45,340 nucleotides of DNA, taken from the IMG/VR virus record IMGVR_UViG_2537561977_000033; one strand, given 5' to 3'. The stretch is from a virus (taxonomy: Duplodnaviria > Heunggongvirae > Uroviricota > Caudoviricetes). Shown in pieces: positions 37,202 through 43,701 of this stretch (position 1 is its first letter; every line of letters begins with the position of its first letter). Position numbers and translations under genes: made by a program. A model generated the notes under the pieces. The model ran no database searches and was not told the origin of the DNA. It saw only the letters and a list, made by a program, of their open reading frames with translations.

Positions 37202-38221
37202 TTATCCCCTGAAACCAGGCGGAATTTCTGTATCCGGTTCAGAAATATGATTCACACAACGCTGTACAGGTGAACGTCCCAGGCGGATGACCAGTTCGTC
37301 CCATTTTTCGCGGAGTTTTGACGGGCTCATGATGTTTTTTACCCAGAATTGATCTCGCTGTACCCGACCAAACATTTCGCAAATTTGTCTGTGGCTTCTG
37401 CCATCCAGCATCCGCATTGTGCGCACGTCATTGGCCCAGGCTGTCCAGTTAGGCTCTTTTGGTCGCATGATCTCTCCATCGTCGCTGGCAGCCTGTTCGT
37501 AAAGGTTCACGATCCGCCCCCAAATCCACTGCGCACACGCCAAATCCTCCCTGCTACCCCACTGGCGTTTTTTCGCACTAAACACAACCGCGTCGGGGTT
37601 CCGGGTTAAAAAATCCTGTTCAGCGGTCTGCGGGTCCGGTTGCGAAGCTTCCGGACGAAAAGTGTTTTTATTCTCTGTAGTAATCTCTGTTGTATTCTCT
37701 GTAAGATCATCAGGCCATTTTGACCCGATGACATTGGGTCGTTTTGAACCAATGGAGCGTTTCATTTTGACCTCTTCCATCGTGTCATTTTGACCTGATG
37801 GAGCGGCGCATTTTAAACCGATGGATTCGCTCAATTTGCCACCATCTAAAAGCTCGCTCCCGTAGTTGATCGTGTAGAAATTGGTCATATCGCGCTTTGA
37901 TTTATTGAGCTTTTCACAACGCAAAAGCCCCAGCGTTTTCAGACTTGCAAACGCGCGCTTTAACGTTGACTCTGACCAGAATGGGAACTGTTCCAGCCAT
38001 TGTTCCGTTGTGTTGTAAATCCAGCGAACACCATCACATTCCATGCCGGAATTGGTATCTCTCAACCAGTAATGCAACTGCTGCAACACAATGGCTTCAT
38101 TTAAGCCAATCTTCATCGCAAGCTGTGTGTTTATAACCAGTGGGCGTTCAGCAAAAAGAAGGCTCATAATTCCATCCAGCTTTTTGTTGGTATTGCTGTC
38201 GATACGCAAGTTTGAAAGCAA
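37202..38221 (-). CDS. putative replication initiation / replisome organizer protein, 339 aa
   Basis: Position downstream of cro-like dicC, corresponding to the lambda O/P position; no confident family match by eye. Confidence 0.35.
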   Translation of the reverse strand: MLSNLRIDSNTNKKLDGIMSLLFAERPLVINTQLAMKIGLNEAIVLQQLHYWLRDTNSGMECDGVRWIYNTTEQWLEQFPFWSESTLKRAFASLKTLGLLRCEKLNKSKRDMTNFYTINYGSELLDGGKLSESIGLKCAAPSGQNDTMEEVKMKRSIGSKRPNVIGSKWPDDLTENTTEITTENKNTFRPEASQPDPQTAEQDFLTRNPDAVVFSAKKRQWGSREDLACAQWIWGRIVNLYEQAASDDGEIMRPKEPNWTAWANDVRTMRMLDGRSHRQICEMFGRVQRDQFWVKNIMSPSKLREKWDELVIRLGRSPVQRCVNHISEPDTEIPPGFRG

Positions 38222-38669
38222 TTGCTTTTTCTATAAGTTCGTCAGTTTCACGATCCACTACGGCAGGATCAGCAAAAAGCAGTCCGGACTCCACCACATC
38301 GCCATATTCTTTGTTTAACCCGGCGATCATGTACGTGATGCTTTTTCCGTCACTAATTTCACGATACAACCTGAAATCATTAATCCGAATAGCCTCCATA
38401 ATTGCAGGCACTAGCGCCGTGAACTTTTCACGCTTATCCCTGGTGTCGATAGCCTTCCAGCGTTCGAATATCTTCACTCGATTAACGCCAAGTGCTCGCT
38501 GATCAACCGCGCCACCTTCATCTGTGACACGCTGAACATCGATGTTCGGGCGCTCTTTCAAAGCCCAGAATGCTTCTGTGATTAATATCGTCGCCTGCTC
38601 CTGTGTCATTCCTGGTCGACATATCCAGGCATCCAGAGCCTCACGAGCCTGTTCAGGAGTGATTTTCAT
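38148..38669 (-). CDS. hypothetical early protein, 173 aa (cII/YdaT position)
   Basis: First gene after dicC in the same operon; overlaps the dicC 3' end by 17 bp. Confidence 0.35.
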   Translation of the reverse strand: MKITPEQAREALDAWICRPGMTQEQATILITEAFWALKERPNIDVQRVTDEGGAVDQRALGVNRVKIFERWKAIDTRDKREKFTALVPAIMEAIRINDFRLYREISDGKSITYMIAGLNKEYGDVVESGLLFADPAVVDRETDELIEKAIAFKLAYRQQYQQKAGWNYEPSFC

Positions 38670-38883
38670 TGTTCAACCGCCCCGCCCGCTTCGTCTTACG
38701 ATATTCATCATAAACTTTGGGATCATACTGAAGCTCCCCGCCAGATGCCTCCTGTAGACGCATCGCGCGACCTTCGGGAACTAAATCCCCTTTCCAGCTA
38801 TAAAGCGAAGCCAAACGAATACCTGCTGCTTGTGCAAGTTTTGTTTTTGAACCGAAATACAAAAGAGCGTCAGTTTTAAGCAT
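38653..38883 (-). CDS. dicC: Cro-like repressor DicC, 76 aa
   Basis: MLKTDALLYFGSKTKLAQAAGIRLASLYSWKGDLVPEGRAMRLQEASGGELQYDPKVYDEYRK... matches DicC; divergent from dicA. Confidence 0.8.
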   Translation of the reverse strand: MLKTDALLYFGSKTKLAQAAGIRLASLYSWKGDLVPEGRAMRLQEASGGELQYDPKVYDEYRKTKRAGRLNNENHS

Positions 38884-38966: not shown

Positions 38967-39374
38967 ATGGAAACAAAAAATTTAACTATCGGCGAACGCA
39001 TCAGGTATCGTCGGAAAAACCTCAAACACACCCAAAGGTCTCTTGCTAAAGCCCTGAAAATCTCCCATGTGTCTGTATCACAATGGGAACGGGGTGATAG
39101 TGAACCTACAGGGAAGAACCTTTTTGCCCTCAGCAAAGTATTGCAATGCTCACCAACATGGATTCTATTTGGCGATGAAGACAAGCAACCAACACCACCT
39201 GTTGAGAAGCCAGTTGCCTTATCCCCCAAAGAACTAGAGCTCCTTGAGCTGTTTAATGCACTGCCAGAATCAGAACAGGATACCCAGCTCGCCGAAATGC
39301 GAGCTCGAGTAAAAAACTTCAATAAACTCTTTGAAGAATTACTAAAAGCCCGTCAGCGGACAAATAAAAGATAA
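38967..39374 (+). CDS. dicA: XRE-family repressor DicA, 135 aa
   Basis: METKNLTIGERIRYRRKNLKHTQRSLAKALKISHVSVSQWERGDSEPTGKNLFALSKVLQCSPTWILFGDED... matches DicA. Confidence 0.9.
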   Translation: METKNLTIGERIRYRRKNLKHTQRSLAKALKISHVSVSQWERGDSEPTGKNLFALSKVLQCSPTWILFGDEDKQPTPPVEKPVALSPKELELLELFNALPESEQDTQLAEMRARVKNFNKLFEELLKARQRTNKR

Positions 39375-39540: not shown

Positions 39541-39696
39541 ATGGATACTATCGATCTTGGCAACAACGAATCTCTGGTGTACGGCGTGTTTCCAAACCAG
39601 GACGGCACGTTCACCGCAATGACGTATACCAAAAGCAAAACGTTTAAAACCGAAAATGGTGCCCGTCGCTGGCTGGAAAGAAACTCAGGTGAGTGA
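39541..39696 (+). CDS. ydfA: YdfA, 51 aa
   Basis: MDTIDLGNNESLVYGVFPNQDGTFTAMTYTKSKTFKTENGARRWLERNSGE. Confidence 0.7.
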   Translation: MDTIDLGNNESLVYGVFPNQDGTFTAMTYTKSKTFKTENGARRWLERNSGE

Positions 39697-39697
39697 T

Positions 39698-40273
39698 ATG
39701 GATTTCGACACAATCATGGAAAAGGCTTACGAAGAATACTTCGAAGGCCTTGCCGAAGGCGAAGAAGCTCTCAGCTTCAGTGAGTTTAAACAGGCACTCA
39801 GAATAAGAATGTGCTCTCACAATGACGCGGAGCACAAATATGAGAAGCAAAATCAGACCGCAGGAAATTTTGTTCTGGAACCCGGAGAAACGCTTTTCAA
39901 AATTCCCGTTACGTGCCCCATTTGCGGTTTTACATCAGAAGAACTTGACGACTCCTGTAACAATCAGGAAACAACCAAGTATGTCGAAGATGATACCGAG
40001 TGCGCACGAAGAACGATTATATCCACGAGTCCAAACTCCAGGACCAATAAATCTCACTATGAGAGGGTGATTAATCCACTCCCCCAAACCAATAAAAAAG
40101 ATGCCGGAGGACAAAAAACCCAATGGAACAACGGGATATCTGTCAAAAAAAGACGTTCCATTAAAGACAAACAACGCAGCGCCAACAACTGTAAGCGCTT
40201 TATACCAGTAATCAATTTTCATGTTCTTAAGCGGATTTATTGGTGGTTGCGACATTGCTTAATGAATCCTTAA
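39698..40273 (+). CDS. 191-aa ORF covering the region K-12 splits into ydfB and ydfC; contains a CPICGF zinc-finger-like motif
   Basis: Starts MDFDTIMEKAYEEYFEGLAEGEEALSFSEFKQAL... and continues uninterrupted to 40273. Confidence 0.4.
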   Translation: MDFDTIMEKAYEEYFEGLAEGEEALSFSEFKQALRIRMCSHNDAEHKYEKQNQTAGNFVLEPGETLFKIPVTCPICGFTSEELDDSCNNQETTKYVEDDTECARRTIISTSPNSRTNKSHYERVINPLPQTNKKDAGGQKTQWNNGISVKKRRSIKDKQRSANNCKRFIPVINFHVLKRIYWWLRHCLMNP

Positions 40274-40532
40274 AACTGTGGTGATTTTAAGGATACCACC
40301 TCGCCTGACGTGGTTAAAAGCAGGCACACAACACGAAAGCGCACGGCGAAGTTCGTCTCACTGTACGGTGTCGTTAAATTTAATTCGACCGTGCGCTTCC
40401 GGTTGTGGCAACCCGCAAAATGGCGCGGCGGTAAGTATGGCGGGGTTATTCCTTCCCCGTTGAGGACACCGGGTTGTCAGGTTGACCATACGCTTAAGTG
40501 ACAACCCCGCTGCAACGCCCTCTGTTATCAAT

Positions 40533-40585
40533 TTTCTGGTGACGTTTGGCGGTATCAGTTTTACTCCGTGACTGCTCTGCCGCCC
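40533..40585 (+). ncRNA. dicF: DicF small regulatory RNA (ftsZ-targeting), ~53 nt, followed by a T-run
   Basis: TTTCTGGTGACGTTTGGCGGTATCAGTTTTACTCCGTGACTGCTCTGCCGCCC matches the DicF sequence as I remember it; between the ydfB/C region and dicB. Confidence 0.8.
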
Positions 40586-40759: not shown

Positions 40760-40948
40760 ATGAAAACGTTATTACCAAACGTTAATACGTCTGAAGGTTG
40801 TTTTGAAATTGGTGTCACTATCAGTAACCCTGTATTTACTGAAGATGCCATTAACAAGAGAAAACAAGAACGGGAGCTATTAAATAAAATATGCATTGTT
40901 TCAATGCTGGCTCGTTTACGTCTGATGCCAAAAGGATGTGCACAATGA
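40760..40948 (+). CDS. dicB: cell-division inhibitor DicB, 62 aa
   Basis: MKTLLPNVNTSEGCFEIGVTISNPVFTEDAINKRKQERELLNKICIVSMLARLRLMPKGCAQ. Confidence 0.85.
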   Translation: MKTLLPNVNTSEGCFEIGVTISNPVFTEDAINKRKQERELLNKICIVSMLARLRLMPKGCAQ

Positions 40949-41229: not shown

Positions 41230-43701
41230 ATGAGTAAAGTCTTTATTTGCGCCGCTATTCCTGACGAACTGGCAACAAGGGAAGAAGGCGCTGTGGCTGT
41301 AGCCACAGCCATTGAAGCTGGCGACGAACGCCGTGCTCGAGCAAAATTTCACTGGCAGTTCCTGGAACATTATCCGGCTGCTCAGGACTGCGCTTATAAA
41401 TTTATTGTCTGCGAGGATAAACCTGGCATACCCCGCCCTGCCCTCGATTCATGGGATGCTGAATATATGCAGGAAAACCGCTGGGATGAGGAGTCTGCTT
41501 CTTTTGTCCCGGTTGAGACTGAATCCGATCCGATGAACGTCACTTTTGACAAGCTGGCCCCTGAAGTACAGAACGCTGTCATGGTTAAGTTCGACACATG
41601 TGAAAACATCACCGTTGATATGGTTATTAGCGCACAGGAATTGTTGCAGGAAGACATGGCAACATTCGACGGACATATCGTTGAAGCGTTGATGAAAATG
41701 CCAGAAGTTAACGCCATGTATCCGGAGCTTAAGTTGCACGCCATTGGGTGGGTTAAGCATAAATGTATTCCTGGTGCTAAATGGCCCGAAATTCAGGCAG
41801 AGATGCGCATCTGGAAAAAACGTCGCGAAGGTGAACGCAAGGAAACCGGAAAATACACGTCTGTTGTTGATCTCGCCCGCGCCAGAGCCAATCAACAGTA
41901 CACTGAAAATTCAACAGGAAAAATCAGCCCGGTCATTGCTGCCATTCATCGCGAATACAAGCAGACATGGAAAACACTGGATGACGAACTGGCCTACGCT
42001 CTCTGGCCTGGTGATGTGGATGCCGGAAACATTGACGGCAGCATCCATCGCTGGGCAAAAAAAGAAGTTATCGACAACGACCGCGAAGACTGGAAGCGTA
42101 TCTCGGCATCAATGCGCAAACAGCCTGATGCCCTTCGCTACGACCGCCAAACTATTTTTGGCCTTGTCCGTGAGCGTCCGATCGACATTCACAAAGATCC
42201 CGTAGCACTGAACAAATATATCTGCGAATACCTGACGACAAAGGGCGTGTTTGAGAATGAAGAAACAGACCTGGGCACTGTTGATGTTCTCCAGTCATCA
42301 GAAACACAAACTGATGCAGTGGAAACTGAGGTATCTGATATCCCAAAAAATGAAACCGCGCCGGAAGCTGAACCATCTGTAGAGCGTGAGGGGCCGTTCT
42401 ATTTCCTCTTCGCAGATAAGGACGGAGAAAAATACGGTCGCGCAAACAAACTTTCTGGTCTGGATAAGGCACTGGCTGCTGGCGCCACTGAAATCACAAA
42501 AGAAGAATATTTTGCCCGAAAAAATGGCACATACACGGGCTTACCGCAAAATGTAGATACCGCTGAAGATTCAGAACAACCAGAGCCGATAAAAGTTACC
42601 GCTGACGAAGTAAACAAAATTATGCAGGCAGCCAATATCAGCCAGCCTGACGCCGATAAGTTGCTTGCTGCATCACGTGGTGAATTTGTTGAAGGGATTA
42701 GTGACCCGAATGATCCGAAATGGGTTAAGGGGATCCAGACCCGCGATTCTGTGAACCAGAACCAGCATGAATCGGAACGGAACTACCAAAAAGCGGAACA
42801 AAACAGTCCAAATGCGTTACAAAACGAGCCAGAAACGAAACAGCCTGAACCAGTGGCGCAACAGGAAGTGGAAAAAGCCTGCACCGCCTGCGGTCAGACC
42901 GGCGGCGGCAACTGCCCTGATTGTGGCGCGGTGATGGGCGACGCAACATACCAAGAAACATTCGATGAAGAGTATCAGGTTGAAGTTCAGGAAGATGATC
43001 CGGAGGAAATGGAAGGCGCTGAACATCCACACAAGGAGAACACTGGCGGCAATCAGCATCACAATAGCGATAATGAAACTGGCGAGACGGCAGATCACCC
43101 AATTAAGGTGAACGGTCATCACGAAATCACATCCACCAGCAGGACGTGTGACCATCTAATGATCGACCTTGAAACCATGGGAAAAAATCCTGATGCCCCG
43201 ATCATCTCAATAGGTGCAATATTTTTCGATCCGCAAACCGGAGATATGGGACCGGAATTTAGTAAGACTATCGATCTGGAAACTGCTGGCGGAGTCATTG
43301 ATCGGGACACCATTAAATGGTGGCTTAAGCAATCACGCGAAGCGCAATCTGCCATTATGACCGATGAAATCCCGTTAGATGATGCACTGTTACAATTGCG
43401 GGAATTTATCGACGAAAACTCCGGTGAATTTTTTGTTCAGGTTTGGGGAAATGGAGCCAACTTCGACAACACGATTTTGCGCCGTTCATACGAACGGCAG
43501 GGGATCCCCTGCCCGTGGCGTTACTACAACGATCGCGATGTACGCACAATCGTTGAGCTGGGGAAAGCCATAGACTTCGATGCCAGAACGGCTATTCCAT
43601 TCGAAGGTGAGCGCCATAATGCACTTGATGACGCCCGTTACCAGGCAAAATACGTTTCAGTTATCTGGCAAAAACTGATCCCGAGTCAGGCTGATTCTTA
43701 A
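41230..43701 (+). CDS. large exonuclease-like protein, 823 aa: acidic N-terminal ~600 aa of unknown function, CxxC-x6-CxxC zinc ribbon, C-terminal DEDDh (DnaQ-like) 3'-5' exonuclease domain
   Basis: C-terminal motifs in DEDDh order: DLETMG (Exo I), WGNGANFDNTIL (Exo II), HNALDDARYQAKY (Exo III); zinc ribbon CTACGQTGGGNCPDCG; sits between the dicB operon and xis-int (recombination-gene position). Confidence 0.6.
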   Translation: MSKVFICAAIPDELATREEGAVAVATAIEAGDERRARAKFHWQFLEHYPAAQDCAYKFIVCEDKPGIPRPALDSWDAEYMQENRWDEESASFVPVETESDPMNVTFDKLAPEVQNAVMVKFDTCENITVDMVISAQELLQEDMATFDGHIVEALMKMPEVNAMYPELKLHAIGWVKHKCIPGAKWPEIQAEMRIWKKRREGERKETGKYTSVVDLARARANQQYTENSTGKISPVIAAIHREYKQTWKTLDDELAYALWPGDVDAGNIDGSIHRWAKKEVIDNDREDWKRISASMRKQPDALRYDRQTIFGLVRERPIDIHKDPVALNKYICEYLTTKGVFENEETDLGTVDVLQSSETQTDAVETEVSDIPKNETAPEAEPSVEREGPFYFLFADKDGEKYGRANKLSGLDKALAAGATEITKEEYFARKNGTYTGLPQNVDTAEDSEQPEPIKVTADEVNKIMQAANISQPDADKLLAASRGEFVEGISDPNDPKWVKGIQTRDSVNQNQHESERNYQKAEQNSPNALQNEPETKQPEPVAQQEVEKACTACGQTGGGNCPDCGAVMGDATYQETFDEEYQVEVQEDDPEEMEGAEHPHKENTGGNQHHNSDNETGETADHPIKVNGHHEITSTSRTCDHLMIDLETMGKNPDAPIISIGAIFFDPQTGDMGPEFSKTIDLETAGGVIDRDTIKWWLKQSREAQSAIMTDEIPLDDALLQLREFIDENSGEFFVQVWGNGANFDNTILRRSYERQGIPCPWRYYNDRDVRTIVELGKAIDFDARTAIPFEGERHNALDDARYQAKYVSVIWQKLIPSQADS

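Follow-up and report, generated by a model that had tools for sequence, protein, structure and literature searches.

Based on the sequence comparisons presented here, we propose that the open frame at 39698..40273 (+) runs into a mobile cassette of temperate phages that is likely to carry two fully overlapping genes on opposite strands, one of them a forward ORF and the other a minus-strand gene for a predicted membrane protein of 106 aa (39935..40255); both DNA strands appear to be read at this locus. The membrane-protein gene is wholly nested in the forward ORF, codon opposite codon, with position 1 of the forward codons paired to position 3 of the reverse codons. The frame lies in a window of 45,340 nt (the whole stretch of viral DNA analysed, IMG/VR record IMGVR_UViG_2537561977_000033), and the initial annotation had described it as one continuous ORF in the region where Escherichia coli K-12 has the two short genes ydfB and ydfC.

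Genomic context of the locus

The neighbouring genes dicC, dicA, ydfA, DicF, dicB and ydfD identify the surroundings as a Qin-like lambdoid prophage. A YdaT-like ORF (38148-38669) and dicC (38653-38883) lie on the minus strand, followed by dicA (38967-39374, +) and ydfA (39541..39696, +), a 51-aa DUF1391 gene of a dicBF-type operon which is called in the ORF listing and in RefSeq and aligns as identical to that of K-12, and whose stop codon reaches into the region where the following ORF starts (TGAtATG). Downstream in the operon are the small RNA DicF (40534..40585, +; Rfam RF00039, 76.7 bits), the only Rfam match between 36000 and 45340, then dicB (40760-40948) and ydfD, and an intact exonuclease gene of 823 codons (41230-43701). 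The prophage in the window is probably defective. In K-12 the corresponding Qin operon, ydfA-ydfB-ydfC-dicF-dicB, is the dicBF operon, and ydfB and ydfC have been described only as encoding small proteins of this operon of unknown function (PMC5069750). The window resembles K-12 Qin in that dicC, dicA, ydfA, codons 1-33 of ydfB, the dicF leader, DicF, dicB and ydfD are identical or nearly so; it differs in that an unrelated cassette of about 500-575 bp, bearing the nested gene pair, stands in for the 3' end of ydfB and the whole of ydfC, and no homolog of the membrane-protein gene is found at this place in K-12.

The same pair occurs in other phages. Prophages of the E. coli type, metagenomic ones and those of Yersinia carry it directly 3' of a cI/dicA-like repressor gene, with the forward ORF placed first or second in the leftward early operon. 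Phage mEp390 and its relatives have the pair between cro and cII; there the forward ORF is annotated as gp39 and the membrane-protein gene lies, unannotated, on the cI strand. In every phage locus with identified flanking genes, the forward ORF is oriented with the early operon and the membrane-protein gene against it. The spacing to the next gene ranges from 4 to >300 nt across lineages, and in several mEp390-like phages the forward stop codon is situated about 16-29 nt before the start of cII. Judging from these positions, the gene pair travels as a unit among different temperate phages.

Origin of the 191-codon frame

According to the ORF listing, the forward frame is open from 39698 to a TAA at 40271-40273 and encodes 191 aa, beginning MDFDTIMEKAYEEYFEGLAEGEE and including CPICGF, so that the uninterrupted frame described in the initial annotation stands; the first in-frame ATG lies further upstream, at 39656, and would extend the ORF to 205 aa (39656..40273, +). 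Pairwise DNA alignment finds the window identical to K-12 up to 39795, that is, to codon 33 of ydfB. Homology to K-12 is then absent from 39796 to about 40300, becoming patchy from about 40296 and solid only from about 40370; megablast against K-12 recovers query bases 1-140 only. The swapped-in segment (39796..40370), which takes the place of the 3' end of ydfB and the whole of ydfC, therefore has a sharp left breakpoint (39795/39796) and a diffuse right boundary. DNA alignment found nothing in the window that corresponds to the final 9 codons of K-12 ydfB or to its stop. The K-12-identical part (39698..39795, +; codons 1-33), delimited by alignment and megablast, contributes the start codon, a GGTG Shine-Dalgarno-like motif found in the SD scan and the coupling to ydfA through TGAtATG.

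At the protein level, PHROG 2061 (YdfB) matches residues 1-34 of the ORF (E=3e-21), short of the full 42 aa of YdfB, and BLASTP detects no resemblance between the 72-aa YdfC and the 191-aa product (E=17). Neither megablast nor alignment detects ydfC DNA in the window segment, and the ORF does not hit PHROG 1744 (YdfC), falling instead into PHROG 35040, which it matches over its full length (E=2.2e-140, residues 1-191 on profile positions 15-205). Other E. coli prophages (P0067, P0068, P0070) carry the cassette upstream of an intact ydfC, in some cases with long read-through ORFs that span the cassette frame and ydfC; cassette and ydfC are thus separate modules. With the end of K-12 ydfB and ydfC located in DNA that has no homolog here, a product to which YdfC bears no relation, and a cassette that coexists with ydfC elsewhere, the 191-aa ORF is the result of a module exchange typical of lambdoid mosaics, rather than a split or fused gene.

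The name ydfB/ydfC given to the frame consequently holds for its beginning only: codons 1-33 align in frame with ydfB, but the alignment ends at 39795 and ydfC does not align to the ORF at all. That the frame is the intact ancestral form, later split by mutation in K-12, was one of two options offered initially, and the identity of the first 33 codons with K-12 ydfB, in the same frame, would agree with it. We nevertheless regard it as vanishingly improbable, given the lack of DNA homology beyond codon 33, the absence of protein similarity to YdfC and its separate PHROG, the prophages in which cassette and ydfC are neighbours, and the forward ORFs elsewhere that have a start of their own and no YdfB part. 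A fusion or frameshift of ydfB and ydfC was likewise considered and ruled out by the K-12 alignment and BLASTP.

The cassette's own forward start in the window is probably the ATG at 39809, 13 nt past the K-12 breakpoint; of the 37 codons that come before it in frame, numbers 1-33 are those of K-12 ydfB. The resulting ORF (39809..40273, +; 154 aa, MCSHNDAEH...) has the length and layout of the forward ORFs of other lineages (141-166 aa), although the SD scan finds no Shine-Dalgarno-like motif before this ATG. In two other lineages (L122 and L123) the native forward ORF begins MGIQKQ... at the position and ribosome-binding site of K-12 ydfA. Recombination would have placed the cassette in a Qin-like dicA-ydfA-...-dicF-dicB operon, fusing the YdfB head in frame to the cassette's forward ORF to give the 191-aa chimera, for which the ORF listing, the K-12 alignment, PHROG 35040 and the RefSeq protein WP_000344958.1 all speak. 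Because ATG 39809 lacks such a motif and the prophage is probably defective, expression of the forward ORF in the window itself is uncertain. The 576-bp ORF is present at >=99% identity in many E. coli, and at least 80% of a 645-bp query is found in 797 of 5426 complete genomes.

The minus-strand membrane-protein gene

The 106-aa product of the nested gene (39935..40255, -; MSQPPINPLKNMKIDYWYKA...GLGEWINHPL...), which had been absent from the initial annotation, is supported by its ORF, homologs, motifs, substitution pattern and AF2 model. A protein search retrieved 60 relatives, down to 34% identity and many of them full-length at 34-58%, from Yersinia, Herminiimonas, Reinekea and metagenomes, and a genome scan gave about 29 loci in proteobacteria and in MAGs assigned to several other phyla. 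Taken together, the searches place homologs in the 34-58% range also in Pantoea, Roseateles, Pseudomonas, Arcobacter and various MAGs. The motifs WYKA and G-GEW-NHP are invariant in the family alignment. Within the phage clade, pN/pS in the membrane frame is 0.12-0.29 (Nei-Gojobori), and the differences per codon position amount to 0.10/0.07/0.33 between the window and L122 and to 0.25/0.15/0.58 between two other loci (L012 and L119). Three transmembrane helices are predicted in the 106-aa protein; the AF2 model (pLDDT 86.6, pTM 0.73) comprises helices at residues 17-32, 42-62 and 85-105 and a beta hairpin at 65-79. On these comparative grounds the minus-strand gene is real and under purifying selection, and no other coding sequence at the locus is as well conserved.

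That only the forward 191-aa protein is real, the minus-strand ORF being its shadow, is accordingly very improbable. Several existing annotations place their calls on the forward strand (WP_000344958.1, phage HannyBb, mEp390 gp39, PHROG 35040), as this reading would expect, but substitutions pile up at third codon positions of the minus strand, and homologs of the minus-strand gene occur in many phyla, where their antisense frame is closed by 2-17 stops; moreover, AF2 is confident for the membrane protein and poor for the forward protein.

An AAGGA Shine-Dalgarno-like motif (40267..40271, -), seen in the sequence and in the SD scan, precedes the ATG of the membrane-protein gene by 11 nt. Further upstream lies a conserved non-coding element of about 40 bp (40290..40330, -), kept in window-type loci and in L122, L123, L004 and L007, across lineages with only 51-58% protein identity. 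It contains a -35-like TTAACC (+ strand 40312-40317), a 16-nt spacer and a -10-like TATCCT (40290-40295), together with the inverted repeats GCCTG (40303-40307) and CAGGC (40321-40325), and may be a weak or regulated promoter. The consensus promoter and terminator scan around the cassette gave nothing convincing for the membrane-protein gene, this element falling below threshold, and no lambda-type CII box (TTGC-N6-TTGC) was found 5' of the gene in mEp390-like phages; its position is what suggests that it might come first on a PRE-like transcript.

Comparisons with known families gave no assignment. Neither the membrane protein nor the forward product matches a family in Pfam, NCBIfam or PADLOC at E<=0.1, so that PADLOC offers no anti-phage defence or exclusion identity for either, and a Foldseek search of the membrane-protein model against PDB and BFVD returned no match at E<=0.001. 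Chromosomal homologs (Herminiimonas, Reinekea and one metagenome contig) are found among small ORFs of unknown function or beside a DUF5677 gene, a setting that offers no hint of what the protein does. A convergent gene for an 84-aa CPSCG protein near the membrane-gene homolog of Desulfobulbales was considered as an ancestral partner and rejected as a coincidence, since it is a conserved chromosomal gene at a distance that ranges from 60 nt to 1 kb.

The forward frame: a conserved head and an unconstrained overlap

Outside the membrane-protein gene, the forward ORF encodes a short N-terminal peptide (39878..39934, +; EPGETLFKIPVTCPICGFT) whose motif is kept across lineages. IP..CPxCGF is found in the window and in L122, L123, L004, L007 and Roseateles L011, and its third codon positions vary synonymously (ATT/ATC/ATA, CCC/CCA/CCG/CCT, TGC/TGT, GGT/GGA/GGG, TTT/TTC). 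By source, the window shares this motif with three further lineages of the E. coli type, one metagenomic prophage, Yersinia and Roseateles, a betaproteobacterium. At this position a second sub-clade, to which phage mEp390, Pantoea and many viral contigs belong, carries FFE.L...PGSV.ID.....V.L.GW. For the 24 forward codons outside the overlap, pN/pS is 0.18-0.6 in most within-clade pairs. In phage lineages the forward start lies 32-47 codons beyond the 3' end of the membrane-protein gene, and in nearly all lineages the SD scan finds GAGG, AAGGA or GGAG 5-10 nt before the forward start codon. From the conservation of its codons, then, the N-terminal peptide is coding and under purifying selection.

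The overlap behaves differently. Amino-acid purifying selection is seen there in the membrane frame but not in the forward frame, where pN/pS is 1.05-1.6, and in amino-acid identity the forward product always trails the membrane protein by a wide margin (39% versus 58% in one example). AF2 models the forward product with a pLDDT of 45.9, with values <50 for residues 46-137 and modest confidence only at the N-terminal motif and a C-terminal helix, all from a shallow alignment; the overlap part is hydrophilic and probably disordered. In most lineages the forward ORF ends 4-12 codons past the start of the membrane-protein gene. The tail within the overlap may have no function of its own. Given the low pN/pS of the head, the values for the overlap and the lack of AF2 structure, the forward gene is best described as a conserved head, followed by a long unconstrained but unbroken stretch and then by a tail whose sequence is set by the conserved N-terminus of the membrane protein.

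The forward product has no evident class. PHROG 35040 represents the forward ORF as phage annotators have called it, carrying no functional information and ignoring the nested gene; forward ORFs of other lineages match it weakly (E 1e-29 to 4e-5), and mEp390 gp39 does not reach it. A zinc ribbon or rubredoxin-like zinc finger would have two CxxC(G) knuckles, whereas a single CPxCG is conserved here; no second Cys/His pair is conserved among lineages, the PGSV...GW sub-clade has no cysteine, and Pfam zinc-ribbon matches appear at E>=0.1 only. Similarity to Lar-like restriction alleviation proteins (PHROG 6422) is not significant (E=0.3, residues 71-140).

Avoidance of antisense stop codons

The codon-aligned antisense frame of the membrane-protein gene is closed solely by the codons TTA, CTA and TCA in that gene. 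In the window their count is 0, which on its own has P=0.08 under local codon usage; as only three codons need be absent, one open case proves little. We therefore turned to scans of viral, metagenomic and genomic data, which gave 99 distinct sequences of the membrane-protein gene, forming 41 clusters at 70% identity. The queries consisted of the membrane protein alone, and the sample is hence unbiased for the other strand. The conserved forward-frame peptide just outside the membrane-protein gene is present in 13 clusters, all from prophage or viral loci, the locus context having been inspected except for one member, Roseateles L011.

Antisense stops are completely lacking in 11 of these 13 motif-bearing clusters (GC 0.41-0.58), as against 3 of the 17 motif-less clusters with GC 0.40-0.53, most others of which have 2-12; the association of the forward motif with the absence of antisense stops, and so of a co-conserved open antisense pair, exceeds chance (Fisher p=6e-4). 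Chromosomal homologs have 2-17 antisense stops. Over the 11 cluster representatives, 0 antisense stops are observed versus 20-26 expected (P about 1e-10 to 1e-12), values which treat the representatives as independent and which residual shared ancestry would weaken somewhat. The expectation was derived from the genes' own codons (GTA 8.8% of Val; NCA 21% of Thr/Pro/Ala), with the TTA/TTR share set, by assumption, at 10-30%, and a less conservative codon control gives a far smaller P. This codon-usage control is validated by the control group, where the CTA/CTN share equals that of GTA/GTN and the TCA/TCN share that of NCA/NCN. The exclusion of TTA, CTA and TCA is, on this codon evidence, best explained by selection for an open forward frame.

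Exceptions exist. Two motif-bearing lineages (L132/L204 and L266) contain 2-4 antisense stops, their forward ORFs being shorter, the E. coli lineage L121 has a TGA within the motif, and a few E. coli copies contain one antisense stop; the long form is thus dispensable in some backgrounds.

These counts also bear on the second option offered initially, that the long ORF is fortuitous, a shadow cast by a membrane-protein gene which alone is functional. Such a reading draws on the fact that the codon-aligned antisense frame is the one most often open by chance, on the modest P value of the window alone, on a forward-frame pN/pS of about 1 or higher in the overlap, on the high-GC homologs L009, L028, L269 and L272 that are open without the forward motif, and on the frequency with which PGAP skips the forward ORF. 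It does not account for the complete lack of stops in 11 independent lineages, for the tight link between openness and a conserved N-terminal peptide with start codons and Shine-Dalgarno-like motifs, or for the stops in chromosomal homologs of equal GC, and we judge it improbable.

Possible roles of the arrangement

For the two-gene cassette favoured here, the orientation of the genes suggests when each product might be made. As the membrane-protein gene is antisense to the early operon, a reasonable guess is that its product is made at times when that operon is off, such as in the lysogen or while lysogeny is being established; the forward ORF, of about 150 aa, would be translated during early transcription. 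Selection would exclude TTA, CTA and TCA from the membrane-protein gene, keeping the forward frame open while leaving the forward sequence of the overlap free. The openness might be needed for a full-length product (head, linker and C-terminal helix) or for translation itself, and we give these two needs about equal weight.

A possible, though less probable, form of the latter is that the frame is open only so that ribosomes cover the early transcript over the antisense gene, the product of the overlap being irrelevant. Ribosomes would then shield about 450 nt from Rho-dependent termination or decay, or would be delivered to the next gene. This proposal concerns the mechanism only and agrees with the two-gene anatomy. 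An overlap that is predicted to be disordered and has no amino-acid constraint, and from which stops are yet excluded, is what it predicts; the ORF is co-directional with the early operon, the gap to cII in mEp390-like phages is only about 16-29 nt, and the K-12 operon runs on into the long untranslated dicF leader (PMC5069750). Against it, purifying selection acts on the protein sequence of the head, something that a mere need for translation would not call for, and the distance to the next gene is variable. Many lambdoid phages, in addition, have antitermination systems.

A further and rather unlikely suggestion is that the codon-aligned arrangement is itself functional: once the early operon fires, the forward ORF would be transcribed and translated over the shared DNA, which would silence the membrane-protein gene and yield a hydropathically complementary partner, amounting to a built-in switch or self-antidote with a logic comparable to that of P22 SieB/Esc. 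Were this true, few antiparallel nested gene pairs of prokaryotic viruses would have better comparative support.

Relation to known systems

The slot beside the repressor gene of temperate phages typically holds exclusion or defence 'moron' genes, and lambda RexB, P22 SieB (with the in-frame Esc) and HK97 gp15 are membrane proteins expressed in the lysogen from beside the lambdoid immunity region. The product described here is similar to these in being a small membrane protein encoded beside a temperate-phage repressor gene; it differs in that its gene is antisense to the early operon and in that no sequence or fold similarity to them was found with Pfam, NCBIfam, PADLOC or Foldseek.

The reality of long antisense overlapping genes is contested for bacteria and phages alike, most candidates being founded on expression noise within a single strain. 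Embedded antisense genes that have been reported include pop/ompA, asa, ano and nog1 in E. coli O157:H7 and olg1/olg2 in Pseudomonas aeruginosa, and the cases are reported to be based mainly on RNA-seq and ribosome profiling (PMC9927249, PMC5960689, PMC6294744, PMC8850804). As reported, the published cases share with the present one two long ORFs on opposite strands and selection signals beyond those of one gene. Unlike in those cases, the container here is the long ORF and the well-conserved gene is the nested one, the pair being known from sequence comparison alone; it is borne on a mobile phage cassette and conserved over many diverged temperate phages; and selection on the container consists of stop avoidance and a constrained non-overlapping N-terminus, rather than of the amino acids of the overlap. 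A literature search found no paper describing the cassette or the gene pair.

Support for the pair is comparative in nature, namely the exclusion, in dozens of diverged temperate phages, of precisely those three codons that would close the opposite frame, combined with a conserved start, a Shine-Dalgarno-like motif and an N-terminal peptide. Since the viable phage mEp390 carries both genes, it makes a tractable test case in which the need for the product could be told apart from the need for translation.

The locus also exposes a problem of annotation, gene callers choosing one strand or neither, and a widespread membrane-protein family has no Pfam or NCBIfam model. RefSeq calls differ between genomes: one (L001) has a 102-bp 'ydfB pseudogene, missing C-terminus' with no further call before dicB, another (L003) the 191-aa hypothetical protein WP_000344958.1, and in mEp390 the call is gp39. 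PGAP frequently leaves the forward ORF uncalled. In practice, the label ydfB-ydfC should not be used for this ORF.

Nested gene pair and its annotation

In one E. coli lineage (GCA_946062735.1), the forward ORF is interrupted by a GGA to TGA change within the CPVCG motif, three codons ahead of the junction with the 3' end of the membrane gene, which is nested antisense within this ORF (in the window, 106 aa at 39935-40255, minus strand, within 191 aa at 39698-40273, plus strand). The membrane gene itself is intact in this lineage, and the forward frame opposite to it is without stops.

Public records treat the nested pair inconsistently. In phage mEp390 (NC_019721, 2956-3411), gp39 is called antisense to the membrane-protein homolog and carries the record note "similar to Bcep176 gp33"; Bcep176 gp33 is called on the membrane-protein strand, and thus opposite strands of homologous DNA have been annotated. 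The identical DNA of two RefSeq records (NZ_CP025859 and NZ_CP169035) has likewise received differing PGAP calls, one being a ydfB pseudogene "missing C-terminus" followed by ~960 bp devoid of annotation, the other a 191-aa hypothetical protein. The 106-aa minus-strand gene is annotated in neither of these two inspected records.

Between the stop of the forward ORF and the dicF leader lies a conserved non-coding element (window 40290-40330), in which GCCTG/CAGGC and CCAC/GTGG form inverted repeats. Prophage lineages with only 51-58% identity between their membrane proteins have this element in common, and the K-12 sequence downstream of ydfC is partly similar to it. This element could be the promoter/operator of the minus-strand gene or, alternatively, an RNA element in the plus-strand transcript.

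Chromosomal homologs of the membrane gene

Two membrane-gene homologs, one of them in Reinekea marinisedimentorum (L283; the other, L284), are located within series of small ORFs that all point in one direction and have no known function, separated by spacers of ~100 nt; one such series stops near a ParD-like gene. This gene layout resembles an integron cassette array. In Arcobacter sp. Pygsuia-1 (NZ_CP182343), the three membrane-gene copies occupy separate chromosomal positions yet do not differ in sequence, as a repeated mobile element would explain.

Other differences from K-12

The window also encodes an intact exonuclease ORF of 823 aa (41230-43701, plus strand), with relatives harboring YdfE_N, YdfE_C and Rv2179c-like domains, whereas its K-12 counterpart is truncated by an IS2 insertion and remains as the ydfE fragment. 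On the opposite flank of the immunity region, the minus strand (38148-38883) carries a 173-aa YdaT-family ORF, which shares 17 bases with the end of the dicC/cro-like gene; K-12 has ydfX/ydfW at this place, and this is a further mosaic difference.
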